From Candidatus Microgenomates bacterium (GTDB lineage: Bacteria; Patescibacteriota; Microgenomatia; Daviesbacterales; UBA10151), in contig JACOYE010000007.1 of the NCBI GenBank assembly GCA_016182045.1, positions 34,121 through 98,120 on the forward strand: a stretch of DNA of 64,000 nucleotides, read 5' to 3'. The notes beneath the pieces were generated by a model. The model had not been told where the DNA came from. It worked only from the letters and a program-made list of their open reading frames with translations, and made no database searches. The translations under genes were made by a program, and so were the position numbers. This document shows, in pieces, positions 6,279 through 55,972 of this stretch (its first letter is position 1; the number at the start of each line of letters is the position of its first letter).

Positions 6279-6289
6279 AACCCTCCTTT

Positions 6290-6366
6290 GTCATTGCGAG
6301 GAGCGAAGCGACGTGGCAATCTTTACTAATCAAGATCCTTCGGTCACTTCGTTCCCTCAGGATGAC
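6290..6366. repeat. ~77-bp palindromic hairpin element (GTCATT...GATGAC) in carA-carB intergenic spacer
   Basis: gtcattgcgaggagcgaagcgacg...cggtcacttcgttccctcaggatgac inverted arms. Confidence 0.7.
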
Positions 6367-6400
6367 AAAATGCGTTTAGAAATTTTACGCATTTTGTCAA

Positions 6401-7468
6401 CTACAAATATGAGACAAATTCATCAAACAAATATCCTGCATCAACTGGACCTGGATTTGCTTCAGGATGAAACTGAACTGCCAAGAATGGCTTTTTTTTG
6501 TGTCTTATTCCTTCATTAGTGCCGTCATTTAAGTTGACAAACCACTCCACCCATTCTGATTCCAAAGATTTCATATCCACTGCAAAACCATGATTTTGAG
6601 AAGTGATTATGGCTTTTTTATTGGTCACATCTTGAACCGGCTGATTTTGACCTCGGTGGCCAAATTTTAATTTATAGGTGTTGCCTCCTACTGCCAAAGC
6701 CAATATTTGACTTCCTAAACAAATACCAAAAGTTGGAACGCCTTCCCTGAGTAGTTGTTCCACAACCTTAATGGTTTTTTTGGCCTGTTTTGGATCTCCC
6801 GGACCATTGGAAACTACCACTCCATCAAATTTAAGTTTTAAAGTTTTCGGATTGAAGTCCCAAGGCACACGAGTAACCCTAACATCTCTTTTTAAGAGTG
6901 AACGAACTATATTTTCTTTGGCTCCACAATCAATTAGCACAATATTTCTCTTTCCAGATCCATAGGTTTCTACCTCATCCACACTCACATATGGCAAAAC
7001 ATTCTCAGCATTGGGATCATACTGTCTGATAGCTGAAGACTGTTGACTGACGATTATCCTACCCAGCATCACCCCATGCTCCCTTAATTTGATAGTCAAA
7101 GCCCTAGTGTCTATCCCCTGTAGCGCTGGTATCCCTTCATCTTTTAACCACTCAGCCAAAGTTTTCTGGCTTTCAAAATGTGACGGGTGATCAATGTAAT
7201 TTTGAACAATTAATCCTTTAACTTGAATTTTTCCAGATTCCCAAAAATCTTTTTTTGGCACTCCATAATTTCCCACCAAAGGGTAAGTTAGAACCAAAAT
7301 CTGGCCAAAATATGATGGGTCTGTTAAAGATTCCGGATATCCCACCATGCCAGTATTAAAAACCACCTCTCCTGACCCCGATTCAATCGGGGCTGAGGTG
7401 GAATGTTGGAAGCCAAAGGACTCTCCGATAAATTCTGTCCCATCTGATAAAATCAGCTTGCCTGTCAT
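6401..7468 (-). CDS. carA: carbamoyl-phosphate synthase small subunit (glutamine amidotransferase)
   Basis: 355 aa, GICLGSQ amidotransferase Cys motif, CarA N-domain. Confidence 0.95.
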   Translation of the reverse strand: MTGKLILSDGTEFIGESFGFQHSTSAPIESGSGEVVFNTGMVGYPESLTDPSYFGQILVLTYPLVGNYGVPKKDFWESGKIQVKGLIVQNYIDHPSHFESQKTLAEWLKDEGIPALQGIDTRALTIKLREHGVMLGRIIVSQQSSAIRQYDPNAENVLPYVSVDEVETYGSGKRNIVLIDCGAKENIVRSLLKRDVRVTRVPWDFNPKTLKLKFDGVVVSNGPGDPKQAKKTIKVVEQLLREGVPTFGICLGSQILALAVGGNTYKLKFGHRGQNQPVQDVTNKKAIITSQNHGFAVDMKSLESEWVEWFVNLNDGTNEGIRHKKKPFLAVQFHPEANPGPVDAGYLFDEFVSYL

Positions 7469-8400
7469 GTCAGTCTACCTAGGATTAATCCTAATAATGC
7501 TTCTCTTACATATAACCCGTTTCGCGCCTGAGCAAAGTAAATCGCATTCGGATGTGTATCTAATTGTGGGGTAATTTCATTAACTCTGGGCAGTGGATGC
7601 ATAAGTTTTATTCCCCTATCCAAAAATTTTTTAAAAGTTGCATCTAAAATAAATTTATCCTTTACTTTTTTATACTCATTTAAATCCTGAAATCTTTCCT
7701 TTTGCACTCTGGTTTGATATAGAAAATCAGCTTGCAGATTATCAGGTAATTTATCAAACTGTTCATATTCCACCCCTCTTTGAACTAAGATTTTTAAAAA
7801 TTCCTCAGGCATAGCAAGAGTTGGATGGGCGATAAAGATTTGTTTAATTTTAAAAAGAGAAAGTGCCAAAGATAAAGCATGCACTGTTCTGCCATATTTT
7901 AAGTCCCCCATCAAAGCTACAGTTATCCCATCCAGTTTACCTGCTTCCTTAAGCATGGTATAAAGATCCAGCATGGTTTGAGTTGGATGCTGGTTGGGGC
8001 CATCTCCTGCATTAATCACTGGTATTAAAGCTATCTCTGCTGCCTCTTTGGCAGCCCCAGCTTTGGGGTGTCTAATGATTAAACAATCAGCATAAGAATC
8101 CATAATCCTGATGGTGTCTGAGAAACTTTCGCCTTTATGGATAGAGGTTGACTGAGGGTCATTAAAACCAATGATACCCATGCCTATTTTTTGAGCTGCT
8201 GATCTAAATGATTGCTCTGTACGGGTGGATTGTTCAAAAAATAGTAATCCTGCAATTTTACCTTGAGCAATAGTGTAGTTAGATCTGTCACTTTTTACAA
8301 ATTGAGGATCAAATTTTTTGGCAGTTTTTAAAATAAAAAGTAACTCCTCTTTGGAGAAATCATTTATATCTATAATATCTCGTCCCTTAAAATTTTGCAT
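7465..8400 (-). CDS. pyrB: aspartate carbamoyltransferase catalytic subunit
   Basis: 311 aa, STRT..SF and HPLPR motifs; 4-bp overlap with carA. Confidence 0.9.
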   Translation of the reverse strand: MQNFKGRDIIDINDFSKEELLFILKTAKKFDPQFVKSDRSNYTIAQGKIAGLLFFEQSTRTEQSFRSAAQKIGMGIIGFNDPQSTSIHKGESFSDTIRIMDSYADCLIIRHPKAGAAKEAAEIALIPVINAGDGPNQHPTQTMLDLYTMLKEAGKLDGITVALMGDLKYGRTVHALSLALSLFKIKQIFIAHPTLAMPEEFLKILVQRGVEYEQFDKLPDNLQADFLYQTRVQKERFQDLNEYKKVKDKFILDATFKKFLDRGIKLMHPLPRVNEITPQLDTHPNAIYFAQARNGLYVREALLGLILGRLT

Positions 8401-8408
8401 TTTTTTTC

Positions 8409-8433
8409 AAAAAAAATCCGCCCCTAGGCGGAT
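8409..8433 (-). terminator. Rho-independent terminator between pyrC and pyrB
   Basis: perfect palindrome ATCCGCCCCTAGGCGGAT followed on minus strand by T8. Confidence 0.7.
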
Positions 8434-8522
8434 AAAACTACCTTTTACAACTAACTTAAAAATGTATTTTTTAAGCATAAACCTTGGGATAGTTTAATGT
8501 TAAAAAAACCTTTTGTCAACCT

Positions 8523-9590
8523 TCAATTTGCGGGGAACATGATTTTTCCAAAAAGTCCGGAAATTTTTCCATTCTCAAAAACCACTTTTCCTCTTAAAGC
8601 TACCTTTTTAATTTTCCCTTTTACCTCTACTCCCTCAAATGGAGTCCAGCCGCATTTGGTGTATAAATTATTAGAATCGATGCGATATTTTTCTTCCATA
8701 TCAATTTCTACAAAGGTATCTTCCTGTTGAGGAATATTAAAAATTTTTCTGGGATTTGTATTTGTTAATTCAATTAATTTTTCTATTGTTAATCTGTCTT
8801 CTTTCACAGCTGTCAAAAGTAAAGGTAGGGCAGTTTCAAGTCCCGGTACCCCATGTGGGGGTTTTTCAGATTTCTTTTCTGCGATTGTATGTGGAGCATG
8901 ATCTTGAGCAATAATATCCATTGTGCCATCTGAAATTGCCTTCCATAAGGCATTCTGGTCTTGCTTCATACCAAGATCTGGTTTCATCTGACCGAATGGC
9001 CCTAATCTTTTGGTATCTGCATTTGTTAAAAAGAGATGGTGGCAAGTAACTTCACAAGTTATCGGTAAACCTTCTGTCTTAGCCTTTCTGATACGATTAA
9101 TGTCTTCTGCCAAAGCCACATGAGCCACATGTAGTCTGTTTCCGTTACGTTTAGCAAGCTTTATGGCCAGAGCCAATTTGTCTTTCTCTGCATGAACTAT
9201 TAAAACTCTCTGCTTTGGCCACCTTTCAAAAATGGTCTGCAGGGCATGCGGATCTTCTTGAAGTAATGTCCCTGTGGTATGATTCATATAAACTTTAAGT
9301 GCCATAACCTTAGTTTTAATTTGGTCAAAATATTTGGAAGATTCTAAAGTCCCTCCAAAATTAAATCCTACATCACAATAAATTCTACCATTAGCAAGTG
9401 AGATCTTTTTATCCACAGCCTCTGGAGTAATAGTGGGCTCAGGATTATTGGGCATATCTAAAATAGCTGTATATCCTCCAGCAATAGCAGCCTTAGTTCC
9501 AGTCTCAAAATCCTCTTTTTGGGTGGCTCCAGGTTCTCTAAGATGTGTATGTACGTCAATTAAGCCCGGTAAGCTAATTATTTTTGACAT
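8523..9590 (-). CDS. pyrC: dihydroorotase
   Basis: 355 aa, N-term GLIDVHTHLREPG metal-binding HxH motif. Confidence 0.85.
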   Translation of the reverse strand: MSKIISLPGLIDVHTHLREPGATQKEDFETGTKAAIAGGYTAILDMPNNPEPTITPEAVDKKISLANGRIYCDVGFNFGGTLESSKYFDQIKTKVMALKVYMNHTTGTLLQEDPHALQTIFERWPKQRVLIVHAEKDKLALAIKLAKRNGNRLHVAHVALAEDINRIRKAKTEGLPITCEVTCHHLFLTNADTKRLGPFGQMKPDLGMKQDQNALWKAISDGTMDIIAQDHAPHTIAEKKSEKPPHGVPGLETALPLLLTAVKEDRLTIEKLIELTNTNPRKIFNIPQQEDTFVEIDMEEKYRIDSNNLYTKCGWTPFEGVEVKGKIKKVALRGKVVFENGKISGLFGKIMFPAN

Positions 9591-18528: not shown

Positions 18529-19521
18529 TCAGGAGAGTTTGCCTGAGCGGGCCAAAGATGCAGCTTTGCATCTTTTATAAAACTCTTCTTGAGCAGCTTT
18601 AATATTTTCTGCTTTCCCTGCCCAAATCTTCATGGGAGCATTTTGTAATCCTCTGGAATAGGAAAAAGTCAATGGCCAGGGGCCGCCTATTTTGTTAATC
18701 TCTAAAAGATTAGCAACAGCAGATTCATCGGATTGTCCACCTGATAAAAATGCAATTCCACCAACCTCTGGCGGAACAGATTGCTTTAAAGCATCCACGC
18801 TCATTTGTGCAACCTTTTTAGAATCAGCCTGAGTAGGACAATCTTTTCCGGACAAAACCATGCTGGGTTTTAAAACCATCCCTTCTAAAGCTACCTTATG
18901 AGCTTTTATCCTTTCAAAAACCATTTTTAAAGTTCTAACTTGAGCTTCAAAACACTGCTCTATGGTGTGATCCCCATCCAATAAAACTTCCGGTTCCACC
19001 ACCGGCACTATATCCTGTTCCTGACATAAAGCTGCATAGCGGGCCAAAACCTCGCTGTTTGCCTCAATGCAGGTATCTGTGGGAATCCCTTCTCCTATTT
19101 GAATAGTGGCCCTGAATTTGGCAAATTTGGCCCCCATCCCTTTATACTCTGTCAATCTGTCTCTTAGTCCATCCAGACCTTCTGCCACCTTTTCATTGGG
19201 AAAGTTTGCTAAATCATGCACCCCCTTATCCACTTTTATCCCCGGGATAATTCCTTTGCTTTCCAAGTATTGGCAGACAGATTTTCCATCAATAGATTGT
19301 CTGATTGTCTCATCAAATAAAATTATTCCCGATAAAAATTCTTCAACTCCAGGGGTAGTAAAAAGCATCTGTCTGTAGGCAAGTATTGACTCCGCTGTAC
19401 ATTCAATCCCTAAAGCATCAAATCTTTTTGTAATGGTTTTAGTTGACTCATCTGCAGCCAAAAGCCCTTTGGGGGGGACCATCATTGCTTGAGCTGTCTG
19501 TTTAAGTGTAGTTATATCCAT
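18529..19521 (-). CDS. fructose-bisphosphate aldolase, class I
   Basis: LLAADES motif and Schiff-base region LEGMVLKPSMV. Confidence 0.85.
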   Translation of the reverse strand: MDITTLKQTAQAMMVPPKGLLAADESTKTITKRFDALGIECTAESILAYRQMLFTTPGVEEFLSGIILFDETIRQSIDGKSVCQYLESKGIIPGIKVDKGVHDLANFPNEKVAEGLDGLRDRLTEYKGMGAKFAKFRATIQIGEGIPTDTCIEANSEVLARYAALCQEQDIVPVVEPEVLLDGDHTIEQCFEAQVRTLKMVFERIKAHKVALEGMVLKPSMVLSGKDCPTQADSKKVAQMSVDALKQSVPPEVGGIAFLSGGQSDESAVANLLEINKIGGPWPLTFSYSRGLQNAPMKIWAGKAENIKAAQEEFYKRCKAASLARSGKLS

Positions 19522-20513
19522 CAGTGATGAACCCGTTTCTCTATCTTCACACCATCATTATCAACTGTCAAGGTTGTTACTTCACTTCCCCCTTCACCCT
19601 TTACCCTTACACCATCCAAATCAAACCACTTATCATCTCCTGTGATAGAAGAGACAGACACCAAACAATTCTCCAATTTACCAGTCACCAAATCATCAAC
19701 ACTCCATATTTTGGTATACCTTTTTTGAATTTGAGCATCTCCTGACCAACCCCTTGCTTCACAAAACCCTCCTATTGCTTTTGCTGCCACCGCTGCTAAA
19801 ATCCCTTCCTCAAATCCCCCACTGCCTATAATAAGATATACACCCTTTTTGTGGGTTGTAGGATCCATGAAAGATAAAATAGATGGCAAAAAATCTCCGG
19901 CTTTAATTAAAATTAAATTCACTCCAAATTTCTCACAAGCATTAATGTAGTGTGCATTTCTATCCCTGTCCATTACTACTACATTAATCTGGTGAGATTG
20001 AATCTTAAATGTGTCCACAACTTCAGCCAAATTTTCCTCAGGAGTTTTACTCATAGACAACTTTCCTTTAAGTTGGGGCGGGCCAAATAATTTATCCATA
20101 TAATCTGTATCATCAGGTGTTCTCATCAAACCTTTATGGGAAGAAACAGCTACAACAGATACAGCTCCGGGAGTGTTTAACTTAGCAGCTTTTGATCCTT
20201 CCACTACATCATTAACCATGTCCAGTTTTTTACTTCCTGATCCAAATGTACCCATCAAGGTAGGTAAAGCTTCACCATATTGGTGAACATGTTTTCTGCC
20301 CTCAGAACCCACTATTTCCAGGGTGAATGGGATATCAGTCAGAGAGGCTGCCATAGCATCTACACCAGCCTGATCTATTAATTTTTCTCTTTTAATAGAT
20401 TCTTCTTCAGTTAAAAGATCATCTGCAGTAAATCCTTGCTGCTGAATTAATCTCCAAACAGATAAAGCAGTCAACTCTGTGGCGCGGGTAATATGGTGTT
20501 TAACAGAATCCAT
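19521..20513 (-). CDS. glpX: fructose-1,6-bisphosphatase class II
   Basis: C-terminal LIKAGD...IIGSGGFEEGILAAVAAKAIGGFCEAR matches GlpX family. Confidence 0.75.
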   Translation of the reverse strand: MDSVKHHITRATELTALSVWRLIQQQGFTADDLLTEEESIKREKLIDQAGVDAMAASLTDIPFTLEIVGSEGRKHVHQYGEALPTLMGTFGSGSKKLDMVNDVVEGSKAAKLNTPGAVSVVAVSSHKGLMRTPDDTDYMDKLFGPPQLKGKLSMSKTPEENLAEVVDTFKIQSHQINVVVMDRDRNAHYINACEKFGVNLILIKAGDFLPSILSFMDPTTHKKGVYLIIGSGGFEEGILAAVAAKAIGGFCEARGWSGDAQIQKRYTKIWSVDDLVTGKLENCLVSVSSITGDDKWFDLDGVRVKGEGGSEVTTLTVDNDGVKIEKRVHH

Positions 20514-41714: not shown

Positions 41715-42077
41715 TCATGGCTTTTTTAACTTCTTCCAAAATTTTTTAGGCTTTTTCACTTGATGTAGTATTGCCTGGGATGAAGTTTCTGATTGTTTAG
41801 ATTTCCTTAACAGTAATTTTAGTTTTTCCATAATCCACATTCTGACCAAAGTTGATGGACCAATTCCCATTTCACTGCCTAATTTAGTCAGCTGAGTCAG
41901 GGTTTTGCCATCCATTCTCACTCCTAAAATATGCTCCAAGGGTTTTGCAAATTCAAGCTTAACTTCCTTCCAGGTTCCATAATCCAGCGGGCTATGTGTA
42001 TCCCAAAAATCAGCCTCCTCTTCATAGGATTTAAACTTTGGTATTTTCTTACCTTTTAAAGTTATCTTTTTATCCAT
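41715..42077 (-). CDS. brnA: BrnA-like antitoxin
   Basis: FKSYEEEADFWDTH...IGPSTLVRMWIMEKL. Confidence 0.6.
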   Translation of the reverse strand: MDKKITLKGKKIPKFKSYEEEADFWDTHSPLDYGTWKEVKLEFAKPLEHILGVRMDGKTLTQLTKLGSEMGIGPSTLVRMWIMEKLKLLLRKSKQSETSSQAILHQVKKPKKFWKKLKKP

Positions 42078-42334
42078 TTTCTAAAATTTCTTTTTTCTCT
42101 ATCATCCATCTCCCTAGCAGAAACAGGATAATAATCATAAAATCCTCTAACACCTACTATGACTAGTAAGTAACGACCGCCTTCAGTTCGTCCCCAGACT
42201 GCCATCTTAGTCTTCCCGCTTTTTATAGCAAAGTGCTTGGAAGAACAAACCTCCTCTACTTCATCTTGACTGACTCCATGCTTTCCAACATGCTCTATAT
42301 TCCACTCATCCCATATTAAATTTCTGATTTTCAT
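42062..42334 (-). CDS. brnT: BrnT-like (DUF497) toxin
   Basis: WDEWNIEHVGKHGVSQDEVEEV pattern. Confidence 0.65.
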   Translation of the reverse strand: MKIRNLIWDEWNIEHVGKHGVSQDEVEEVCSSKHFAIKSGKTKMAVWGRTEGGRYLLVIVGVRGFYDYYPVSAREMDDREKRNFRKWIKR

Positions 42335-42357: not shown

Positions 42358-43422
42358 TCAATCCATAAAATAATCCAACTTCATAGCCTTTTTAACTTCT
42401 TCTAATGTTTTTTGGGCTTCTGATCGGGCTTTTTCAGTACCTTCTTTGAGGATCCGTTCGACAAGCTCAGGATCTCGCTCGAATCGAGCTCGACTTTTTC
42501 TTATTGGATCCAGGAAATTATTTAAAACTTTAACCAGAAACTTTTTTACCTCAATATCCCCCACCTGGCCTTTTGTATAGCGAGATTTGAGATTTGAGAT
42601 TTGAGATTTGAGATTTTCAGGACCAAAGGCATCTAAATAGATAAAAACGGGGTTGCCTTCAACTCTACCTGGATCAGTAGCATGTATTCTTTTAGGATCT
42701 GTATACATATTCATCACCTTTTTCTCCACTTCTCCAGCAGTATCTGAAAGATTAATCACATTCCCAGCAGACTTACTCATTTTGGCTTTGCCATCTGTTC
42801 CAGGTAAAATGCCTAAATCTTCTGGTACCAAAGCTTCCGGTACTGGAAAAACCTGACCAGACACCTCCGAGGTGGGCTTTGACTCCTCGGAGGTGGATTG
42901 AGAAGATTTACCATAAACTCTATTAAATTCCCTGGCAATTTCTCTGGTAATCTCGATATGCGAAACTTGATCCTTACCCACCGGTACTAAGTGGCTTCTC
43001 ACCATTAAAATATCTGCTGCCTGAAGCACCGGGTAACCTAAAAGCCCATAGGAGGGAATGGTGATATGTGCATCTCTCATCACATCTTTTAAGGTGGGCA
43101 TCCGTTCAAGTCTGGGGACGGTGGTTAAATTGCCAAAAATGATGGCCAGTTCTGCCACTTCAGCTATTTGAGATTGAACATAAATGGTGGCTTTCTCAGG
43201 ATCAATTCCGACGGAAAGATAATCCAATACCATCTGGTAAATATTTTCCTTAAGCTCTTGGGTATCTTTAAGCTCAGGTTTAGTAGTTAAGGTATGCAAA
43301 TCCGCAACAATAAAAAAGCACTCATATTCATCTTGCAACCTGACCCTATTTTTCAAAGACCCCACATAATGGCCTAAATGTAATTTTCCAGTTGGTCTGT
43401 CCCCTGTTAATATTCTTTTCAT
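42358..43422 (-). CDS. trpS: tryptophan--tRNA ligase with in-frame heptamer-repeat insertion
   Basis: GDRPTGKLHLGHYVG and KMSKS motifs; NLKSQISNLKSQISNLKS repeat. Confidence 0.9.
   Translation of the reverse strand: MKRILTGDRPTGKLHLGHYVGSLKNRVRLQDEYECFFIVADLHTLTTKPELKDTQELKENIYQMVLDYLSVGIDPEKATIYVQSQIAEVAELAIIFGNLTTVPRLERMPTLKDVMRDAHITIPSYGLLGYPVLQAADILMVRSHLVPVGKDQVSHIEITREIAREFNRVYGKSSQSTSEESKPTSEVSGQVFPVPEALVPEDLGILPGTDGKAKMSKSAGNVINLSDTAGEVEKKVMNMYTDPKRIHATDPGRVEGNPVFIYLDAFGPENLKSQISNLKSRYTKGQVGDIEVKKFLVKVLNNFLDPIRKSRARFERDPELVERILKEGTEKARSEAQKTLEEVKKAMKLDYFMD
42583..42617. repeat. tandem heptanucleotide repeat (GATTTGA)n inside trpS
   Basis: gatttgagatttgagatttgagatttga... Confidence 0.8.
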
Positions 43423-43676
43423 AAGTTTTTACTTTTATCAGTATCCTTTTTTAATTTCTCAATAATCCACATCCTTGCTAAAGTGGTGGGACCAATACCC
43501 AGATGATCTGCTTTCTGCCGCAGCTTTTGAATATCGTCAGATTCAAACCTAATGGTTAATGTATCAGTTTTATTTGCACGGTGTAAACCAACTTTTATAT
43601 CCTTACCGAAAACATCTATGGCATCATGTTTATCCCAAAAATCAGCCTCCTCTTCTAAGGTTTTAAACGGCTTCAT
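43419..43676 (-). CDS. brnA: BrnA-like antitoxin (second copy)
   Basis: LEEEADFWDKHD...IGPTTLARMWIIEKL, paralogous to 41715..42077. Confidence 0.6.
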   Translation of the reverse strand: MKPFKTLEEEADFWDKHDAIDVFGKDIKVGLHRANKTDTLTIRFESDDIQKLRQKADHLGIGPTTLARMWIIEKLKKDTDKSKNL

Positions 43677-43705
43677 TGGTTTGATAGATCCCTTTTTAAC
43701 AAATC

Positions 43706-44002
43706 TTATCTTAATTTTTCGCCTCCCTTAAAATTTTCCATATATAATAATTGTTCTTTTTTCTTGGTGTACCTTGCAGTCACAAGTCCGTATCTATTTT
43801 TCCCACTTCTTGGTCCAACTACCACAGTAATTAACCTGCCTTTATTCGTTTTTCCCACTAACAAACTTTTATCAGATCTCCCCTTTAAAATTAAATAATC
43901 CCCAGCTATAACCTCAAAAACTTCATCTATTGTTATGCTGTGCCTAGCTATATGCTCTGGTCTATCTTCCTCAATAATCAGCTCATCAACAGTAACATCC
44001 AT
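43706..44002 (-). CDS. brnT: BrnT-like (DUF497) toxin (second copy)
   Basis: EEDRPEHIARHSITIDEVFEV...RLITVV pattern. Confidence 0.55.
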   Translation of the reverse strand: MDVTVDELIIEEDRPEHIARHSITIDEVFEVIAGDYLILKGRSDKSLLVGKTNKGRLITVVVGPRSGKNRYGLVTARYTKKKEQLLYMENFKGGEKLR

Positions 44003-44850: not shown

Positions 44851-45105
44851 TTAAACTACTTTAAACCTTCCTAGCTGTAACTCTTTTGATCCACGGGTTA
44901 CTGTGGCAATACCTACTTTTAATTCTTCAGCAATTTTGTGCTGAGGTATTCCAGCTTTCAATCTTTTTACTATCTGAAGCCTGGTAGGTATTTCTTGAAG
45001 TTCCTTTGGAGTTAAAATCCCCAAAAGAAAATCTTCCATCTCTTCCCTATTTTTAATGCTTAGTAACAAATCAATTAGTTCGTTTAATTGCTTATTCCTA
45101 ATCAT
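44851..45105 (-). CDS. TrpR-like YerC/YecD family DNA-binding protein
   Basis: IAEELKVGIATVTRGSKEL C-terminal HTH. Confidence 0.65.
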   Translation of the reverse strand: MIRNKQLNELIDLLLSIKNREEMEDFLLGILTPKELQEIPTRLQIVKRLKAGIPQHKIAEELKVGIATVTRGSKELQLGRFKVV

Positions 45106-45742: not shown

Positions 45743-47113
45743 TTAATTAATATAATTATCAGAAAACCATCGCAATGCAGCTTGGAGGTTTTTCGTTTCT
45801 TTCGTGCCTAATCTCAAGGCATATTGAAAAGATGCCTCTCTTTTAGCCTCAGCAAGATCTATATCATAAATTTCAACAGGCCATAAGTACTCTGCTATAT
45901 TACCCACCACTTTTAGCTTATAAAGATCATAAGCAGGACCATTATGTATTCCTGACTCTGGATCAAATTCCCCCACTTCATACTGGGAAGCTATGTAATC
46001 CTCAAGTGCGAATATCATTACTTCTAAAGGACTCTCTAACCCTTCTACAGAGATTAATCTTCTTCTAAATTGCACTCTATCTGATCTGCCATGACTGGTC
46101 TTAACAGAATCTTTTTTCTTAATTTCACCATTACCAGTAAATTCACTAAATAAATTTTCCACTTCTTGGGTAACTTTATCTCGTAGTGGGCGTCCTCCCT
46201 CCATAATCACTAGTCTAAAGCCAACATGATCTTCAACATGATGTAGGGTTTCTATAACACCACCATTAGTTTCAGAGCCATTAAGTCCGGCTCCATTGGC
46301 CAACCAAGATCTCTCCTTTGCCTTAATAACTGCTGATGGAAGATCCTTTTCTCTTGGATCATACAATACTAGTACATCCCCTCCCTGTTCATCCTTAAGT
46401 CCTAATTTTCTAACAGGAAAATCTAAGGACTTCACCCATAAATCATCTCTAAATTTCGGATCAGGATACTTAGAACTTAATCCAACTAATCTGTTCGTAC
46501 CTGGTTCATGATATGAGAAAGTATGATATTTTTTGGGATCTCCACTTTTACCTGTAAATAACCGTCTCTCTAAAAAAGTATTAATTCCTGCTAGAACTTC
46601 TCTGGCCTGACCATTTTCATCTCTAGACATCAATTCAGCACAAAGCAAAGCTAAACCTAATTGACTACCTTGCTCATACCTATACTGCTGACCTATTAGT
46701 CCTGAAGGCATAGTCAGTACTCTCAAGGCATCTGAAGGTTTTCCCCGGGCCCATGCAATATTATTTGTTAAGGTTGCTTGTCTTTCTTGATCAGCAAAGA
46801 GTATGCCATGGGCGTAATTCACCGTATCGGTTGCTCGTCTCACTGCTGTTTTCCAAAATCTCTCTCTTTCATCCTGATTATCTTTGATGCCGAACATAGC
46901 TCCAACTTTATCGTATTGTGCCCTATCTACTCCTAAACAGAGTTCTTCAGAAATATCCTCGCCCCTTTTCCATGCCTGTCTAAATTTATCATAAGTTTCC
47001 TCACCAAAAAAGCTTTTTACTTCCCTCACCATTAACTTTCCACCCCTAATACCTTGTTTAAACATATCAAACACTAATCCTGGTCTTCCTTCAGCTAATT
47101 CTGTAATTGCCAT
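45743..47113 (-). CDS. hypothetical protein, 456 aa, unknown function, preceded by attenuator leader
   Basis: AAGGAGA RBS 8 nt upstream of ATG; no recognisable domain. Confidence 0.55.
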   Translation of the reverse strand: MAITELAEGRPGLVFDMFKQGIRGGKLMVREVKSFFGEETYDKFRQAWKRGEDISEELCLGVDRAQYDKVGAMFGIKDNQDERERFWKTAVRRATDTVNYAHGILFADQERQATLTNNIAWARGKPSDALRVLTMPSGLIGQQYRYEQGSQLGLALLCAELMSRDENGQAREVLAGINTFLERRLFTGKSGDPKKYHTFSYHEPGTNRLVGLSSKYPDPKFRDDLWVKSLDFPVRKLGLKDEQGGDVLVLYDPREKDLPSAVIKAKERSWLANGAGLNGSETNGGVIETLHHVEDHVGFRLVIMEGGRPLRDKVTQEVENLFSEFTGNGEIKKKDSVKTSHGRSDRVQFRRRLISVEGLESPLEVMIFALEDYIASQYEVGEFDPESGIHNGPAYDLYKLKVVGNIAEYLWPVEIYDIDLAEAKREASFQYALRLGTKETKNLQAALRWFSDNYIN

Positions 47114-47133: not shown

Positions 47134-47300
47134 AAAAACCGCTCCTTTTTTTGGGAGCGGTTCATTTAGGTTTTTATTCCCCTTTATTTGGGAATTACCC
47201 TTAGAACCGCTGCCCTGTAATAAGGGAGCGTTTCATAAAATTAAACATTCTGACCATATACATAATTTTCATATTCATAAATTTTCTAAAAAAGAAAAGA
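47134..47300 (-). promoter_or_regulatory. putative ribosome-mediated transcription attenuator (leader ORF + alternative hairpins + terminator)
   Basis: segments AACGCTCCC / GGGCAGCGGTT / AACCGCTCCC / GGAGCGGTTTTT allow 1:2 + 3:4(terminator) or 2:3 pairing. Confidence 0.55.
47201..47278 (-). CDS. leader peptide MNMKIMYMVRMFNFMKRSLITGQRF (6 in-frame AUG codons)
   Basis: all six ATG in one frame; stop codon lies inside hairpin segment 2. Confidence 0.4.
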   Translation of the reverse strand: MNMKIMYMVRMFNFMKRSLITGQRF

Positions 47301-47325
47301 ATCCTTCTGACAGGATTCTGCTCTT
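47296..47325 (-). terminator. Rho-independent terminator after citryl-CoA lyase-like gene
   Basis: AGAATCCT-tctgac-AGGATTCT stem followed on minus strand by TTTCTTTTTT. Confidence 0.55.
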
Positions 47326-47419
47326 ATTTTTAGAATAAACACAAATGAGCATTTTGTCAAGATCTATTTTACTATAAGTTAAGCAAAAAGTCAACCACAA
47401 TCAGTTTACATGATTGTGG

Positions 47420-48211
47420 TCAAGTTTTCTTAAGAGATCTTGGAGGAGCACCATCATATTCAATCTCCTCATCAGCAATTCTTCTGAATGGCTTTTCTCT
47501 GACCCATTCCTCAAAAATATGGGCCACCAGCCCTACCACCCTGCCTATTATGAAAAATCCTTTACCTAACCTATAATCAAAACCCATATCAGAAATAACC
47601 GCTGCTATTGCCCCATCCACATTAATGGGGATCTTTTTACCCTTTTTCTCCTGTAGCACACCCTCTACATTTTGAGCCAGTTCACAATGTTCCCCATAAA
47701 AACCTAACTTTTTGGCTTTTTCAAAAATCTGGGTAGCTCTGGGATCTTCATCTTTATAGACTTTATGCCCGAAACCAGGGATTCTATCACCTGAACCCAA
47801 AACTTTTTCCACCAGCTTTTCTGCAGTTAATCCCATCTGAAGTAACCTGGCACACTCTTCAATTGCTCCTCCATGGGCATCCCCTATTCCCAAAACTCCG
47901 GCAGCCACTGCTGCTTGCATGGGATTACCAGCTGAGGCTGAATTCCTGGCATTAGTCACAGATGGTGGACCTAAACCATTATCTATTGTGGAAATAAGGA
48001 TAGCATCCAGCATAGCTCTTTCTTTATCAGAGGGAAGTTCACTTTTTAATTCCAGCCAGATAGCATCTGTAAAATTAACTTTATCTATCAATTCTGTGAC
48101 TTTATAACCATGAATATGAGCCTCCCCATCAATTATCCCTGAAATAGCTGTTTTCCACTTTTTATCCATATTTGAATAAGTTCTCCAAGTTACAAGATAC
48201 AAGTTTTCCAA
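47420..48211 (-). CDS. citryl-CoA lyase-like protein (citrate-synthase-fold, ACL C-terminal domain homolog)
   Basis: citrate synthase signature GFGHKVYK.EDPR. Confidence 0.7.
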   Translation of the reverse strand: MENLYLVTWRTYSNMDKKWKTAISGIIDGEAHIHGYKVTELIDKVNFTDAIWLELKSELPSDKERAMLDAILISTIDNGLGPPSVTNARNSASAGNPMQAAVAAGVLGIGDAHGGAIEECARLLQMGLTAEKLVEKVLGSGDRIPGFGHKVYKDEDPRATQIFEKAKKLGFYGEHCELAQNVEGVLQEKKGKKIPINVDGAIAAVISDMGFDYRLGKGFFIIGRVVGLVAHIFEEWVREKPFRRIADEEIEYDGAPPRSLKKT

Positions 48212-48275
48212 AAAATAATCAAATTCAAAAGTTTAAATTCTAAAATTTGGGTTTTTGAATTTGTTTGTAACTTGT

Positions 48276-49172
48276 TTACTTGGACACTTGATTGTTTAAT
48301 AAACCAGGTATTTCATCTGGAGTTTTGGCTATTTTGACACCGGCTTCCTCAAACGCCTTAATTTTTGATTTATAACTGCCTTTCTCTCCATAAATTATTG
48401 CTCCTGCATGGCCTAATTTTGTACCCTGAGGTAAAGTTTCTGCAAATAAACCAGATATAAAGGCAACTACTGGTTTTGTGAAACCACCAGATTTGATCAG
48501 TTCTGCAGCTTCTTCCTCATATGTTCCACCTATTTCCCCAAATAACACCACAGCCTCAGTTTGAGGGTCTTTTTCAAATTCTTCCATCAAATCTGCAAAA
48601 GTTGAGCCCACCAATATATCTCCACCAATACCCACCACAGTTGATTGCCCAATTCCATTTTTGGTAAGAATCCATGAAACTTCCGAGGCCATTCCTCCTG
48701 ATTTTGAGATTACACCTACTGATCCTTTGGAAAAAACTCCTCTGGGATCATCTCCTCCAATTGAACCAACCTTTCCTATTCCTGGTGAGATTATCCCAAT
48801 TGATGAAGGACCGACAATTCTGACAGTCTGTTTGGCTAAAGCTATTGCCTTGGCAGTATCTTGGATGGGAATATGTTCTGTTAAAACATTTATAAGAGGA
48901 ATTTTGGCCTTAATTGCTTCCTCTATTGCCCCAAATGCAGCAAAGTTAGGCACAGCGACAAATGAAGTATTTATCCCTGGATGATTCTCTAAAGCCTCAG
49001 CTATTGTATTATAAACCGGCACTCCATGAACTTCCTGACCGCCTTTACCAGGAGTTACTCCAGCCAAAACGCGAGTGCCATAATTTTTCATCTGCAAGGC
49101 CACTTTGGACCCTTCTTTACCGGTGATACCTTGAACTAAAACTTTGGTTTGTTGGGTTATTAGAATAGCCAT
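48276..49172 (-). CDS. succinyl-CoA synthetase alpha-like subunit (CcsB/AclA N-domain-like)
   Basis: CoA-binding VLVQGITGKEG; phosphohistidine loop GHAGAII. Confidence 0.85.
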   Translation of the reverse strand: MAILITQQTKVLVQGITGKEGSKVALQMKNYGTRVLAGVTPGKGGQEVHGVPVYNTIAEALENHPGINTSFVAVPNFAAFGAIEEAIKAKIPLINVLTEHIPIQDTAKAIALAKQTVRIVGPSSIGIISPGIGKVGSIGGDDPRGVFSKGSVGVISKSGGMASEVSWILTKNGIGQSTVVGIGGDILVGSTFADLMEEFEKDPQTEAVVLFGEIGGTYEEEAAELIKSGGFTKPVVAFISGLFAETLPQGTKLGHAGAIIYGEKGSYKSKIKAFEEAGVKIAKTPDEIPGLLNNQVSK

Positions 49173-49334
49173 TAAATTTCTCCTTTAAAAGCAGCGCAGT
49201 CATGAGCATAAAAGCAATTAGAAAGTTTTGTGTGTAGATACCCGTCACAAAACTTTCCCATAGCGAGACTAGAGATATATCTCAATGTTTCAGTATCCAC
49301 TAGTCGAGCGGTGCTTTTTGCCATGACAAGCTGA

Positions 49335-50549
49335 TTATTTTCCATAAGCCAGATCTACCATAATCTTTGCTGTACTTGTCATCGGTGTCTCCCTCCCATA
49401 TATATGAAAATCAAAACCCTCTTTCTTACCCACTTCTTTTAACATCTCAAAAGCTTCTTTATCCCTTGGTCCACCACGCCGGATCACAATTGGGTATATA
49501 GGCTTAGGCTTGATCTCTCGCAACCCTTCCACAAAGCCCATTAAAGTTTCATAAATATCAGTAAAATTGGCTGTTCCGCCCACAAACCAACAGCCTTTTA
49601 ACCCAGGTTTTGATAAAACTATCTTGGTTAGTTTTTTTAATTTCTCACGCGGAGGATTACCTGAGTGCTCAGTATAATTGGCAGGTCTTCCACCATATGC
49701 CAAAAGCGCATCCATATTGACAATAGACCCTCCACCTCCGGCTGCAATAACTGCAATATCTCCATCTAAATCCCAATAAACAGAACCTGCTGTACCTCTG
49801 TGATCCCCTTCATCAATTTTGCGGGCCTCAATTTCAGCCTCAGTTGGAGGCCTGCCAAAAAGATTTCTTTCCGGGAATTTTACCTCACGTCTAAAATCAG
49901 CATCATCATCCAAAATCACTTTGGCATCTAAGGCATATACTTTTGCATCACTTCGACTCGAAGACTCGCTCAGTGAATATTGGCTGAGCGAAGTCGAAGC
50001 CTTACCTATAACTAATGGATTTATTTCCGCTAACTCACAATCATATTTAGTAAATACTTGCCATAATTTATTAGCCACATCCACTAGCTCTTTTGGAAAA
50101 TCCTGTGGAGTTTCAAATCCTTTTAAAATATCAACAGGATAACTTTGTGCCCTCTTTTCCTCTACCCCAGTTCCTCCCTCCCCAAAAGTCATGATGGGGC
50201 CACGGGTTGAAGTATCATAGGAAAATGATAAATAATACTCTTTTTCATATTCCACTATCTCCTCTACCAAAACCTTTTCCACCTTTTCCCCATTAATCGT
50301 TTTTCCAAATAATTCTTTTAGGCTGGTGCTTACTGCCTGTTGACTGTCCACTTTTATGATTCCACCAGATTGCGCTCTTTTGCCAGATAAAGTTTGTGCT
50401 TTTAAAACCACCCCATCTGTCATTCTGACCCTGAGCGCAGTCGAAGGGGAAGAATCTAATTCCTCATGAGCTGTGATAAACTGTGACTCTGGCACATTTA
50501 TCCCACAATTTTTAAAAAGAATTTTGCCTTCAAATTCATAAAGAAGCAT
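49335..50549 (-). CDS. succinyl-CoA synthetase beta-like ATP-grasp subunit (CcsA/AclB-like) with two in-frame hairpin-element insertions
   Basis: ATP-grasp N-domain; low-complexity inserts SLSQYSLSESSSRSDAKV and SSPSTALRVRMTDG. Confidence 0.8.
   Translation of the reverse strand: MLLYEFEGKILFKNCGINVPESQFITAHEELDSSPSTALRVRMTDGVVLKAQTLSGKRAQSGGIIKVDSQQAVSTSLKELFGKTINGEKVEKVLVEEIVEYEKEYYLSFSYDTSTRGPIMTFGEGGTGVEEKRAQSYPVDILKGFETPQDFPKELVDVANKLWQVFTKYDCELAEINPLVIGKASTSLSQYSLSESSSRSDAKVYALDAKVILDDDADFRREVKFPERNLFGRPPTEAEIEARKIDEGDHRGTAGSVYWDLDGDIAVIAAGGGGSIVNMDALLAYGGRPANYTEHSGNPPREKLKKLTKIVLSKPGLKGCWFVGGTANFTDIYETLMGFVEGLREIKPKPIYPIVIRRGGPRDKEAFEMLKEVGKKEGFDFHIYGRETPMTSTAKIMVDLAYGK
49949..50001. 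repeat. hairpin element (CTGAGCGAAGTCGAAG family) inside SCS-beta-like gene
   Basis: cacttcgactcgaagactcgctcag...ctgagcgaagtcgaag inverted arms. Confidence 0.7.
50419..50456. repeat. hairpin element (GTCATTCTGACCCTGAGCGCAGTCGAAGG) inside SCS-beta-like gene
   Basis: shares CCTGAGCG(A/C)AGTCGAAGG core with 51417 copy. Confidence 0.7.
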
Positions 50550-50550
50550 A

Positions 50551-51864
50551 TTACTTTAATTTATCTCTAAAATGATCATAACTGGTTAAAGCAGGAGTAT
50601 GTTCAGTTACTTCTAATTCTTGTTTTACAAGTACTTTTTTATTTTCTTTTACATCTCCATATAAAACCACCCCTGGCCCAACCAAAGAGTTAGATCCCAC
50701 CCTTGCCCCAGGCATGGTGGAGGCATTTACCCCAACTCTTGATCCCTTTCCAGCTATCAACCCCAGCTTATGTCTTCCAGAGTCCACCTTTTCCTCCTCA
50801 CCCACCCTAATTGTATGGTCATCCAGCCTTAAATTTGCCAATACTGCCCCGGATCCCATTCCAAAATCTCCCTCTATTACACTATCCCCAACATAATTAG
50901 TATGGAACCAGGAATTTACTCCAATATATGATCTGGTGATATCTGAGTTAAATCCAGTCACACATCCCTCTTCTAAGTCAGATTCCCTTACCATTGTGTT
51001 GTTACCCACAATACAATTTTTTCCAATGTAAACCGGACCCTTAATAACTGCTCCTTCAAAAACTCTTACTCCTTCCTCAATCACCACTGGACCTGTAATA
51101 ATTGCCTTATCAGACACATTTGCTCCCGGGGAAATTTGTTGTTCAATCTTACATAAAAGGTGAGTTGTAATATCTAAAATCTGCCATGGGTATTTTAAGG
51201 GAATCCAATTGCCTTGATATTTTGAAAACCTTACATCCAATCCGTCAGCAATCATCTTATCCAAAGCTATCTCATATAGATCATCTTTATCGCTTTTTGC
51301 ATTCTGCAGATATTCCACCAGTTTTTTACCATCTTTAAAGTAATCAACCACAAGTTTTACCAAATCAGATGGCTCATTCCCTTCCCCTGGTTTTTCCACT
51401 ATACCCTGTACCCTACCTGTCCTGAGCGAAGTCGAAGGATTCCCTGTACCCTTTTTTATATACCCTCCTGGAAAATATTTCTCTACCTTTAATCCAGCTA
51501 CCACCACATCTGCTCCTCCCTGGGATACTTGTACATAGATTGATCCATCCACCACATCTTCAGCATTAACTACCAAAACTTCACCCTCTAAATATTCCTT
51601 GGCGGAAAGTAGGGCATCTGCCATACCTTTGGGTTGTTTTTGTACAACAACTTGGAACTTAAGATTTAAAGCTTGAGCAATTTTAGTCACCTCAGCTTTG
51701 CTTTGTGGAGTGGAAACAATCACAAATTCGCCATTCACATTCTCCTTAATTTTTTTGAGATTGTGATACAAAAGTGGCTTTCCCAAAAAAGGGATCAGAC
51801 ATTTATCGGTATTTATCGGCCACATTCTTTTGCCTTCCCCACCAGCTAAAACAATTATTTTCAT
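50551..51864 (-). CDS. sugar-1-phosphate nucleotidyltransferase with C-terminal hexapeptide-repeat domain (GlmU-like)
   Basis: N-terminal LAGGEGKRM nucleotidyltransferase motif, C-terminal LbH repeats; insert NPSTSLRTGRVQG. Confidence 0.8.
   Translation of the reverse strand: MKIIVLAGGEGKRMWPINTDKCLIPFLGKPLLYHNLKKIKENVNGEFVIVSTPQSKAEVTKIAQALNLKFQVVVQKQPKGMADALLSAKEYLEGEVLVVNAEDVVDGSIYVQVSQGGADVVVAGLKVEKYFPGGYIKKGTGNPSTSLRTGRVQGIVEKPGEGNEPSDLVKLVVDYFKDGKKLVEYLQNAKSDKDDLYEIALDKMIADGLDVRFSKYQGNWIPLKYPWQILDITTHLLCKIEQQISPGANVSDKAIITGPVVIEEGVRVFEGAVIKGPVYIGKNCIVGNNTMVRESDLEEGCVTGFNSDITRSYIGVNSWFHTNYVGDSVIEGDFGMGSGAVLANLRLDDHTIRVGEEEKVDSGRHKLGLIAGKGSRVGVNASTMPGARVGSNSLVGPGVVLYGDVKENKKVLVKQELEVTEHTPALTSYDHFRDKLK
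51417..51445. repeat. hairpin element copy inside GlmU-like gene
   Basis: cctgtcctgagcgaagtcgaaggattccc. Confidence 0.7.
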
Positions 51865-51873
51865 ATGATATAT

Positions 51874-51903
51874 CCTTCGAAGTCGAAATTTCGACCGAGA
51901 AGT
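51874..51903. repeat. palindromic CGAAGTCGAAATTTCGAC element in intergenic spacer
   Basis: ccttcgaagtcgaaatttcgaccgagaag. Confidence 0.55.
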
Positions 51904-51964
51904 TACCTTAAAAACTATTATAGTTTATCAGGACTGTTCTCGCTAATCGCTCGAACAATAATAA

Positions 51965-52037
51965 GTACCAGGGGTGGGGATCGAACCCACAACCGCCACG
52001 TTATGAATGTGGTGCTCCGCCATTGAGCTACCCTGGC
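51965..52037 (-). tRNA. tRNA with CAT anticodon (elongator Met or lysidine-type Ile)
   Basis: cloverleaf readable: acceptor GCCAGGG, D arm GCTC/GAGC, anticodon loop TTCATAA, T arm GTGGG-TTCGATC-CCCAC. Confidence 0.75.
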
Positions 52038-53478: not shown

Positions 53479-53733
53479 TTAAATCGGGGTTAATTTTAAT
53501 CCTAAAATTCTGATTTTTTGTTCTCTGCTCCAGCCTTTTATTTGTCTTTCTCTTTTTAAAGCTTCTGATTGATTTGGTAATTTCTCAGAATAAATCATCT
53601 TAAGAGGTTGATGGGATCTGGTGTAATGCCCGCCTTTGCCATTTTTATGATCAGAAAATCTTTTTTCTAAATTATTAGAAACCCCAGTATAAAGACTGCC
53701 ATCTTTACATAAAAGTACATAAACAAACCACAT
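53479..53733 (-). CDS. GIY-YIG nuclease family protein
   Basis: FVYVLLCKDGSLYTGVSNNLEKRFSDH pattern. Confidence 0.8.
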   Translation of the reverse strand: MWFVYVLLCKDGSLYTGVSNNLEKRFSDHKNGKGGHYTRSHQPLKMIYSEKLPNQSEALKRERQIKGWSREQKIRILGLKLTPI

Positions 53734-53760: not shown

Positions 53761-53832
53761 CGCGGGGAAGTGTAACGGCTGCACACAAGGCTCATAATCT
53801 TGAGGCAGTGGGTTCGACTCCCGCCCCCGCAA
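53761..53832 (+). tRNA. initiator-type tRNA-Met (CAT)
   Basis: 5' CGCGGGG and 3' CCCCCGCAA acceptor identical to E. coli tRNA-fMet (C1xA72 mismatch), anticodon loop CTCATAA. Confidence 0.8.
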
Positions 53833-53882
53833 CACTTCGACTCCACTTCGGTAAACTCAGTGTCGCTCAGTGCAGGCACAAA

Positions 53883-55846: not shown

Positions 55847-55899
55847 ATAACAAAAATTGTATGATATTCATACATAAATGTCAATTAGCAAAATGCCGG

Positions 55900-55972
55900 T
55901 GGGCGGACCAGGACTTGAACCTGGAACCAATTCTGTATAAGAGAACCGCTCTACCAATTGAGCTATCCGCCC
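55900..55972 (-). tRNA. tRNA-Ile with TAT (UAU) anticodon
   Basis: acceptor GGGCGGA/TCCGCCC, D arm GCTC-AATTGGTA-GAGC, anticodon loop CTTATAC, T arm CCAGG-TTCAAGT-CCTGG. Confidence 0.65.

Follow-up and report, generated by a model that had tools for sequence, protein, structure and literature searches.

ATP-dependent cleavage of citrate is carried out by enzymes whose homologous modules are distributed over one or several polypeptides. In eukaryotes, the ATP-citrate lyase ACLY consists of one fused chain of about 1100 aa that supplies acetyl groups for lipid, histone and UDP-GlcNAc. Prokaryotic ATP-citrate lyases (ACL; subunits AclB and AclA), among them those of Chlorobium limicola (6hxj) and Methanothrix/Methanosaeta concilii (6hxi), carry out the same overall reaction with their SucD-like and citryl-CoA lyase (CCL) modules fused into one subunit of about 610–630 aa. 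In Hydrogenobacter thermophilus, an autotrophic member of the Aquificota, three separate polypeptides do the work: CcsA and CcsB, the two subunits of citryl-CoA synthetase (CCS), together with the lyase Ccl. The CCS/CCL family is represented in curated models, and its presence in the Candidate Phyla Radiation (CPR; Patescibacteria) and in DPANN lineages has been mentioned in passing: DPANN and CPR sequences annotated as succinyl-CoA synthetase (SCS) or citrate synthase (CS) were reported to be monophyletic with CCS or CCL (2022 preprint, 10.1101/2022.10.25.513756), a study of hydrothermal-vent DPANN lists ACL, CCS and CCL in a few metagenome-assembled genomes (MAGs; PMC8091004), and for ACL-bearing Patescibacteria, Micrarchaeota, Nanoarchaeota and others a groundwater study puts forward an uptake of citrate followed by its conversion into acetyl-CoA and oxaloacetate (PMC13014828). 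In our literature search neither a link between the cluster and amino-sugar acetylation nor an account of its conserved neighbourhood came to light, and nothing was returned for 'Daviesbacteria' combined with 'citrate lyase'. Here we describe a cluster of three genes in a stretch of 64,000 nucleotides (the window) from contig JACOYE010000007.1 of a Candidatus Microgenomates bacterium, and conclude from their sequences that they very probably encode a CCS/CCL system for cleaving citrate, an ATP-citrate lyase in its unfused form. The host is a Daviesbacteria-like CPR bacterium; the window has a G+C content of 35–44% with nearly all genes on one strand, and more than 100 protein clusters, largely from Candidatus Daviesbacteria, are 61–78% identical to the large subunit encoded here, of which a 100% identical copy is on record at NCBI under 'Candidatus Microgenomates bacterium'.

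The cluster consists of three adjacent open reading frames (ORFs) on the reverse strand, and a check of the ORFs bore out the coordinates and motifs that a preliminary description of this DNA had given for them. In the direction of transcription these are the gene for the large, CcsA-like subunit (49335–50549; 404 aa), with an ATP-grasp and a citrate-binding domain; that for the small, CcsB-like subunit (48276–49172; 298 aa), with a CoA-binding domain and, within the string LGHAGAII, the phosphohistidine loop GHAGA (His255); and a 263-aa ORF (47420–48211) that contains GFGHKVYKDEDPR and encodes the lyase, Ccl. The first two genes are separated by 162 nt and the last two by 64 nt. The 263-aa ORF exists as described; the gene itself, however, most likely spans 47420–48169 and encodes 249 aa, the mechanical ORF having been extended 14 codons too far upstream to a TTG at 48211 that lacks a ribosome-binding site. 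The ATG at 48169 (M15 of the ORF, MDKKWKT) is the probable start because it aligns with residue 1 of H. thermophilus CCL, is preceded by GGAG and yields a homologue-like length, Ccl homologues having a median of about 246 aa and one called relative 250 aa. With this start the second spacer grows to 106 nt. Unlike the fused ACL subunit, the SucD-like and CCL modules are thus encoded by separate genes with a spacer of 64–106 nt and a ribosome-binding site for the lyase, and the same separation is seen in all 73 complete related loci. Solved structures at 40–55% identity are available for all three proteins.

The large subunit combines an ATP-grasp_2 domain (101 bits) with the Pfam domain Citrate_bind (PF16114, 88.6 bits against a cutoff of 26.8), and the Pfam scan gave no match to Ligase_CoA, the domain that canonical SucC proteins carry in the place of Citrate_bind. 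Its top NCBIfam match is the SucC equivalog, at 154.1 bits and far under the cutoff of 370. Ranked against solved structures, it scores highest with H. thermophilus CcsA (6hxq_B, 203 bits, 39.9% identity), followed by the ACL β subunit of Chlorobium (6hxj_A, 139 bits) and the SCS β subunit of Thermus (95 bits). Residues G297, N328, F329, T330 and R357–R358 align one-to-one with G309, N346, F347, T348 and R378–R379 of human ACLY, which from its crystal structures we take to be the citrate contacts. A docking paper lists Asn346, Phe347, Thr348, Arg378 and Arg379 as lining a ligand-binding pocket of ACLY, which confirms the numbering only (PMC9504748). Where the large subunit has N-F-T and R-R, the SCS β subunit of Thermus has G-I-T and R-V. 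The putative citrate-contact positions are invariant or nearly so among 81 members of the family, as are the ATP-grasp residues K50, R58, E175, N177 and D208.

A neighbour-joining (NJ) tree of 122 large-subunit sequences, comprising the query, representatives at 50% identity from a HMMER search of the full library, PDB references and Escherichia coli SucC, unites the sequences with an A-N-F/N-T...R-R-G motif in one clade (184 of 200 bootstraps) that includes the query, H. thermophilus CcsA, Chlorobium AclB and ACLY-A of M. concilii, and leaves SucC outside. Sister clades carry other motifs, namely SNT, NNT and SSQ together with R-x-G. Within the family the motif of the query is of the ACL type (A-N-F-T, with the G/A-N-F-T/R-R-G citrate-site signature), in contrast to the A-N-N-T of Aquificae CcsA. 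A further difference from the latter is a Ser-rich, low-complexity insertion, KASTSLSQYSLSESSSRSD, at CcsA residues ~183–200 (49950–50003, reverse strand) inside the ATP-grasp domain, to which nothing corresponds in the aligned sequences of Chlorobium AclB or H. thermophilus CcsA; a length of 380–395 aa, 10–25 aa less than the 404 of the query, is common among its closest relatives. In the public records consulted, the names given to the large subunit are 'acetate--CoA ligase family protein', 'hypothetical protein' and that of a protein with a citrate-binding domain.

The small subunit has the Pfam domains CoA_binding and Ligase_CoA, and falls under both NCBIfam cutoffs for SucD (303.2 bits against 336 and 353). 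Overall it stands closer to archaeal SucD (Aeropyrum pernix 2yv2, 307 bits, 54.7% identity) than to H. thermophilus CcsB (230 bits, 45.8%), whose solved chain is also longer (353 aa against 298), and its identity to SucD proteins in general is 46–55%; the CCS match is again better than that to ACL (230 against 173 bits). Two insertions are shared by the small subunit and H. thermophilus CcsB, IGGxDP after the K-V/I-G motif and F-A-E-x-L directly before GHAGA. Both are found in all 76 CPR/DPANN relatives and are absent from SucD of E. coli, Thermus, Methanocaldococcus jannaschii and A. pernix. An NJ tree splits the four SucD references from the family and H. thermophilus CcsB with 199 of 200 bootstraps. 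The histidine of the phosphohistidine loop, H255, is present in 76 of 76 family members and E213 in 74.

The third protein passes the cutoffs of three NCBIfam models for citryl-CoA lyase subfamilies (NF004869, 311.8 bits against 212; NF004866, 253.1 against 245; NF004868, 202.1 against 193). Its match to the Pfam family Citrate_synt covers profile positions 160–353 of 357, which is the C-terminal half only. Its alignment with the solved H. thermophilus CCL (6hxp_A) runs end to end, with a score of 273 bits and 50.4% identity across residues 1–246; no citrate synthase exceeds 76 bits. H99 (HGGA), H135 (GFGH), R144 (DPR), D185 (NVD) and R210 are kept in all 69 Ccl homologues and align with the same motifs in the citrate synthases 2c6x and 6abx; in citrate synthases such motifs provide the two catalytic histidines, the catalytic aspartate and oxaloacetate-binding arginines. 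Because it spans the whole of the solved CCL and its catalytic residues are conserved, we read the protein as a complete, conserved CCL and not as a fragment or pseudogene of citrate synthase.

The H. thermophilus system likewise consists of three separate polypeptides and agrees with the present one in domain content. It provides the best solved match for both the large subunit and the lyase; the citrate-contact residues, the phosphohistidine loop and the His/His/Asp/Arg set of the lyase are conserved, and the two CcsB-specific insertions are shared. The preliminary description had named citryl-CoA synthetase and citryl-CoA lyase, and this identification is strengthened by the Citrate_bind domain, the ranking of solved structures, the ACLY contact residues, the well-supported clade of the large subunit and NF004869. 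It had left room for an alternative, an ordinary SucCD next to a truncated or pseudogenised citrate synthase. SucCD does share the fold and the phosphohistidine cycle, SCS models are the top NCBIfam matches of both subunits, and the small subunit is nearer to A. pernix SucD than to H. thermophilus CcsB. Yet both subunits remain under the SCS cutoffs (154 against 370; 303 against 336), the citrate-type carboxylate-binding domain has N-F-T/R-R in place of the G-I-T/R-V of SCS, the SucC and SucD references fall outside the respective clades, the large subunit grouping with CCS/ACL and the small one with CcsB, the CcsB-type insertions are present, and the attached lyase gene is full length with its catalytic residues intact in 69 of 69 homologues. 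As far as sequence goes the SucCD alternative is refuted, and we hold it to be exceedingly improbable. A closer competitor keeps the architecture and changes the acid, with 2-methylcitrate, malate, itaconate or another hydroxy- or tricarboxylate giving rise to a different acyl-CoA that is made and then cleaved. The sister clades with SNT, NNT or SSQ and R-x-G motifs imply that the superfamily switches substrate readily, and a second CPR sub-lineage, described below, has a much more divergent CcsB and Ccl (33–46% identity). In the lineage of the window, on the other hand, the positions aligned with the citrate contacts of ACLY are invariant or nearly so, and the Ccl has 50% identity with a protein whose deposited name is citryl-CoA lyase and scores above the cutoff of the NCBIfam citryl-CoA lyase subfamily; a substrate other than citrate is therefore improbable. 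Two points about the trees call for caution: branching within the CCS/ACL clade is poorly supported (45 of 200 NJ bootstraps), and both subunit trees were built by neighbour-joining with few outgroup and reference sequences.

CCS/CCL clusters of this kind are widespread. A pattern scan in which each GTDB species was represented by one genome returned at least 588 loci encoding relatives of the large subunit, of which the best 80 were examined; with two records of one contig (L001 and L002) added, 82 loci were fetched, 81 of them distinct. The labels of the best 80 comprise the CPR groups Daviesbacteria, Woesebacteria, Woykebacteria, Curtissbacteria, Giovannonibacteria, Magasanikbacteria, Colwellbacteria, Jorgensenbacteria, Lloydbacteria, Wildermuthbacteria, Saccharibacteria and Paceibacterota, and the DPANN groups Nanoarchaeia, Woesearchaeota, Micrarchaeota and Nanobdellati, in addition to one alphaproteobacterial MAG, one Methanosarcinales, several unclassified entries and many pipeline MAGs titled 'uncultured Gammaproteobacteria'. 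The last of these titles (L003, L006–L008 and others) look like placeholder names, because the sequences share at least 70% identity and their synteny with Daviesbacteria. One locus titled Candidatus Nanoarchaeia (L017) has bacterial mraZ, mraW and ftsL adjoining the cluster, which suggests a mis-binned or mislabelled CPR contig. The preliminary description had considered such a cluster unexpected in a reduced genome, a view that does not stand, given that the closest 80 relatives are almost all from CPR or DPANN and that the presence of the system there had already been published. The order CcsA–CcsB–Ccl is kept in 73 of the 82 loci, and of the remaining nine, eight are cut off by a contig end within CcsB or shortly behind it; taken together with the very strong family match of each protein, this recurrence means that the motifs are not due to chance. 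The trio behaves as a unit, since the order holds while the flanking genes differ between lineages.

About half of the loci whose identity lies at 50–53%, and several lower ones, stand apart from the rest (L019, L021, L023, L024, L026, L029–L031, L033–L038, L040, L045 and L068). Their CcsA is 47–52% identical to that of the window, their CcsB 40–48% and their Ccl, at approximately 220–230 aa, only 32–39%, with the catalytic residues still present. This divergence suggests a second sub-lineage of the cluster. Several of its loci adjoin NeuB-type or NUDIX genes.

In the window the trio is preceded by a fourth gene (50551–51864, reverse strand), which encodes a 437-aa GlmU-like bifunctional sugar-1-phosphate nucleotidylyltransferase/acetyltransferase and is probably the first gene of an operon; this too sets the locus apart from that of H. 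thermophilus. The protein has the Pfam domains NTP_transferase and Hexapep, matches TIGR03992 (Arch_glmU) with 250.5 bits, under the cutoff of 292.1, and finds its best solved homologues in entries for Sulfurisphaera tokodaii ST0452 (5z09, 141 bits; 2ggo, 139 bits); it is predicted to consume acetyl-CoA. We read the four genes as an operon on the basis of their junctions, ribosome-binding sites and the signal at their end: the stop codon of the GlmU-like gene and the start codon of CcsA are separated by one base (TAA-t-ATG), CcsB has the ribosome-binding site AAAGGAG 7 nt upstream of its ATG, and an intrinsic-terminator-like hairpin (47391–47423, reverse strand; −17.1 kcal/mol, z = −5.6 against shuffles), comprising a 13-bp stem followed by the U-tract CUUUUUGCUU, overlaps the stop codon of Ccl and marks the probable end of the operon. 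The probable promoter region lies between a tRNA-Met gene and the GlmU-like gene (51865–51964, reverse strand), where a TATAAT hexamer (51917–51922), a palindrome and AAGGA before the ATG can be picked out by eye; no convincing promoter emerged from a consensus scan of this region, which gave a weak 9/12 site at 51894–51865, and the count of promoter-like sites was not above that of shuffles. The palindrome, GTCGAAATTTCGAC, is a perfect one of 14 bp at 51882–51895, between the hexamer and the start of the GlmU-like gene. We considered it as a conserved operator and rejected it, its sole near-match in the 81 related loci being at position 2959 of L009.

The unusually long spacer between CcsA and CcsB contains a second hairpin (49221–49257, reverse strand), a perfect stem of 12–13 bp (−17.7 kcal/mol, z = −4.3) followed by a partial U-tract, which may act as an attenuator or stabilise the RNA; no such spacer separates the two genes in most of the Daviesbacteria relatives, where they overlap or abut. 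Directly downstream of the terminator lies a 456-aa ORF (45743–47113, reverse strand) without any Pfam or NCBIfam match, with stable hairpins in its 5' region (47136–47163 and 47298–47319); a homologue, likewise without a Pfam match, sits downstream of Ccl in L005. A protein of the Trp-repressor family (YerC/YecD-like, 72.8 bits) is encoded at 44851–45105 (reverse strand), 2.3 kb downstream of Ccl, and in three Curtissbacteria loci (L041, L042 and L044) the gene for a 145-aa member of this Pfam family is inserted between CcsB and Ccl; such a protein could be a regulator of the cluster. Two pairs of genes resembling the BrnT toxin and CopG antitoxin (41715–42334 and 43419–44002, reverse strand) flank the gene for tryptophanyl-tRNA synthetase (TrpRS) in the window, and the same type of pair (ORF clusters c41 and c40) is found between CcsB and Ccl in the Daviesbacteria loci L004 and L009, again beside TrpRS. 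The spacers of the operon seem to serve as landing sites for small mobile modules. A stand-alone GIY-YIG ORF of 84 aa (53479–53733, reverse strand; 80.9 bits) recurs in 14 loci (16 copies), in L005 between CcsA and CcsB.

The GlmU-like gene is one instance of a broader association. When ORFs were called in all loci and clustered, and the recurrent families annotated, a GlmU-type LbH or a small GNAT acetyltransferase was found within 3.5 kb of the cluster in 44 of the 82 loci, and a GlmU-like (LbH-domain) gene in 25. At least one amino-sugar or envelope gene lies within 5 kb in 56 loci, a count that covers GlmS, YvcK, NeuB with CMP-sugar transferase, sugar epimerase, family-2 glycosyltransferase, dcw genes and GlmU/GNAT acetyltransferases, and leaves out the MurA-like and TrmB families. 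GlmS (805 bits) is near the cluster in 16 loci; by a rough expectation, two given single-copy genes would fall within about 12 genes of each other some 1–2% of the time if the genome holds about 800 genes, which is an estimate and not a controlled test. Other recurrent neighbours are the UDP-GlcNAc-binding YvcK (196.4 bits, cutoff 196); a 217-aa protein corresponding to the acetyltransferase (LbH) half of GlmU only, encoded just upstream of CcsA in five loci; a set of NeuB, CMP-sugar cytidylyltransferase, DUF218 and GNAT genes typical of nonulosonic-acid synthesis; small GNATs, sugar epimerases, a family-2 glycosyltransferase and a TrmB-type sugar regulator; and the dcw genes mraZ, mraW, ftsL and ftsI, transcribed divergently from the cluster. 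MurA-like genes of the EPSP-synthase family flank it in L014 and L031. The amino-sugar and envelope neighbours occur in at least seven arrangements (upstream, downstream and divergent) and in several CPR classes, and their common denominator is the consumption of acetyl-CoA for sugar N-acetylation.

These data lead us to the following model. CcsA, through its ATP-grasp and citrate-binding domains, and CcsB, through its CoA-binding domain and His255, would assemble into an enzyme resembling succinyl-CoA synthetase, in which the histidine is phosphorylated by ATP, the phosphate is passed to citrate and attack by CoA yields citryl-CoA. Ccl, with its citrate-synthase fold and His/His/Asp triad, would then split citryl-CoA into acetyl-CoA and oxaloacetate. 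Transcribed together with the GlmU-like gene, the trio would turn scavenged citrate into acetyl-CoA with which amino sugars are N-acetylated (for UDP-GlcNAc and related precursors of the envelope), with oxaloacetate as a by-product that may feed aspartate synthesis. We regard it as likely, judging from the sequences and their surroundings, that the system works in the acetyl-CoA-producing direction and outside any TCA or reverse TCA cycle, a direction favoured because the neighbours share the use of acetyl-CoA in sugar N-acetylation. That sugar N-acetylation is its specific purpose we propose more tentatively, with rather more doubt than belief, and the same degree of reserve applies to the generalisation that the CCS/CCL systems of CPR and DPANN are dedicated acetyl-CoA generators for envelope sugars (UDP-GlcNAc and nonulosonic acids), drawing on citrate from the host or community and serving GlmU/GNAT acetylation. 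The logic would be that of ACLY, which cleaves citrate outside any TCA cycle for biosynthetic acetylation; the role proposed here is drawn from gene neighbourhood.

Two other roles have to be weighed against this model. The closest characterised homologues, CcsA, CcsB and Ccl of H. thermophilus, serve the reverse TCA cycle (PMC9802188), and the preliminary description had placed the cluster in that context, as the citrate-cleavage step of CO2 fixation in the manner of Hydrogenobacter. The surroundings give this no footing: neither among the approximately 45 scanned ORFs of the window nor among the recurrent neighbours of the 81 loci did we find a TCA enzyme, be it 2-oxoglutarate:ferredoxin oxidoreductase, fumarate reductase, aconitase, isocitrate dehydrogenase or malate dehydrogenase. 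CPR bacteria have been described as lacking both the TCA cycle and autotrophic pathways (PMC7143001), in contrast to the autotrophic host of the H. thermophilus system, and a survey that required pathway completeness recovered this form of the reverse cycle (rTCA2) in only 10 of 52,515 MAGs (PMC9802188). A part in CO2 fixation is accordingly very improbable. The second possibility is that the system runs towards citrate, Ccl condensing acetyl-CoA with oxaloacetate and CcsAB converting citryl-CoA to citrate with the formation of ATP by substrate-level phosphorylation. This we consider unlikely, although it has more in its favour: the chemistry is reversible, with about −5.9 kJ/mol quoted for citryl-CoA synthesis (10.1101/2022.10.25.513756), CPR bacteria are described as fermenters dependent on substrate-level phosphorylation and at least some Microgenomates can obtain acetyl-CoA through pyruvate:ferredoxin oxidoreductase (PFOR; PMC7143001), and the NCBI name of the large subunit, 'acetate--CoA ligase family protein', points the same way. 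Such a direction demands stoichiometric oxaloacetate, for which neither the window nor the recurrent neighbours offer a phosphoenolpyruvate or pyruvate carboxylase or another source; citrate, if there is no aconitase, would be a dead end; and the recurrent neighbours are biosynthetic consumers of acetyl-CoA, not fermentation genes. A citrate-forming, ATP-making direction has reportedly been proposed for the ATP-citrate lyase of Desulfobacter.

Several observations weigh against our own proposal of citrate cleavage for sugar acetylation. The ACL and CCS/CCL reactions are near equilibrium, so that their direction is not readable from sequence. The score of the GlmU-like protein, at 250 against an NCBIfam cutoff of 292, leaves its acetyltransferase substrate uncertain, and no citrate transporter was identified beside the cluster. 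There is no amino-sugar or envelope neighbour in 26 of the 82 loci, and the association seen in the remainder is partly inherited synteny within clades. Finally, the PFOR reported in some Microgenomates (PMC7143001) would be another source of acetyl-CoA.

Beyond the operon, the window ORFs include CarAB, PyrB, a dihydroorotase-like amidohydrolase, class I fructose-bisphosphate aldolase, GlpX, glycosyltransferases, Pol I, FtsH and TrpRS, together with thioredoxin-reductase-like and transporter proteins and the toxin–antitoxin pairs. The pyrimidine genes form a block at 3063–9590 (reverse strand) encoding CarB, CarA, aspartate carbamoyltransferase and the dihydroorotase-like amidohydrolase; as a user of aspartate it is a possible, speculative sink for the oxaloacetate released by Ccl, and no aminotransferase was seen in the window. 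The gene for the aldolase (405 bits) sits next to that for a GlpX-type fructose-1,6-bisphosphatase, in the same orientation (18529–20513, reverse strand), which suggests gluconeogenic capacity that could feed fructose-6-phosphate to GlmS. ARAGORN called tRNA genes at 55898–55972 and 51965–52037 (both reverse strand) and 53761–53833 (forward strand). Among them is a tRNA-Ile with the anticodon TAT (UAU), where most bacteria use a lysidine-modified CAU tRNA; there are also two genes for tRNA-Met (CAT), no more than 2 kb apart, one of which could be the initiator or tRNA-Ile2. GC skew is negative in nearly every 2-kb bin of the window (1–64000), with a cumulative value that drops steadily to −4.97, and almost all genes lie on the reverse strand; an unusual strand composition disparity reported for a complete Microgenomates genome (PMC7143001) may reflect the same phenomenon.

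To the earlier sightings of the family in CPR and DPANN genomes the present analysis adds, for each of the three proteins, evidence at the level of residues and indels; it also documents how widely, and in what strict synteny, the cluster occurs in these lineages, its operon link with a GlmU-like gene and the recurrent association with amino-sugar and envelope genes, from which a testable hypothesis of its role follows. The labels now in use, acetate--CoA ligase and SCS, could steer metabolic reconstructions of CPR and DPANN wrongly, towards acetate fermentation, a partial TCA cycle or even carbon fixation. Dense sampling of unfused CCS/CCL systems in these lineages, some with the ACL-type motif, furnishes material on the origin of ACL and citrate synthase from CCS/CCL. 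One CPR genus has been described as lacking genes that would turn pyruvate into acetyl-CoA (PMC11809585), and if the proposed role is true, the module would be a source of acetyl-CoA for ultra-reduced lineages that are without such enzymes. It would also represent a prokaryotic counterpart of the role that ACLY plays in the cytosol, and if this route from citrate to acetyl-CoA indeed serves amino-sugar acetylation, it would amount to a concrete nutritional dependency on citrate in host-dependent cells.

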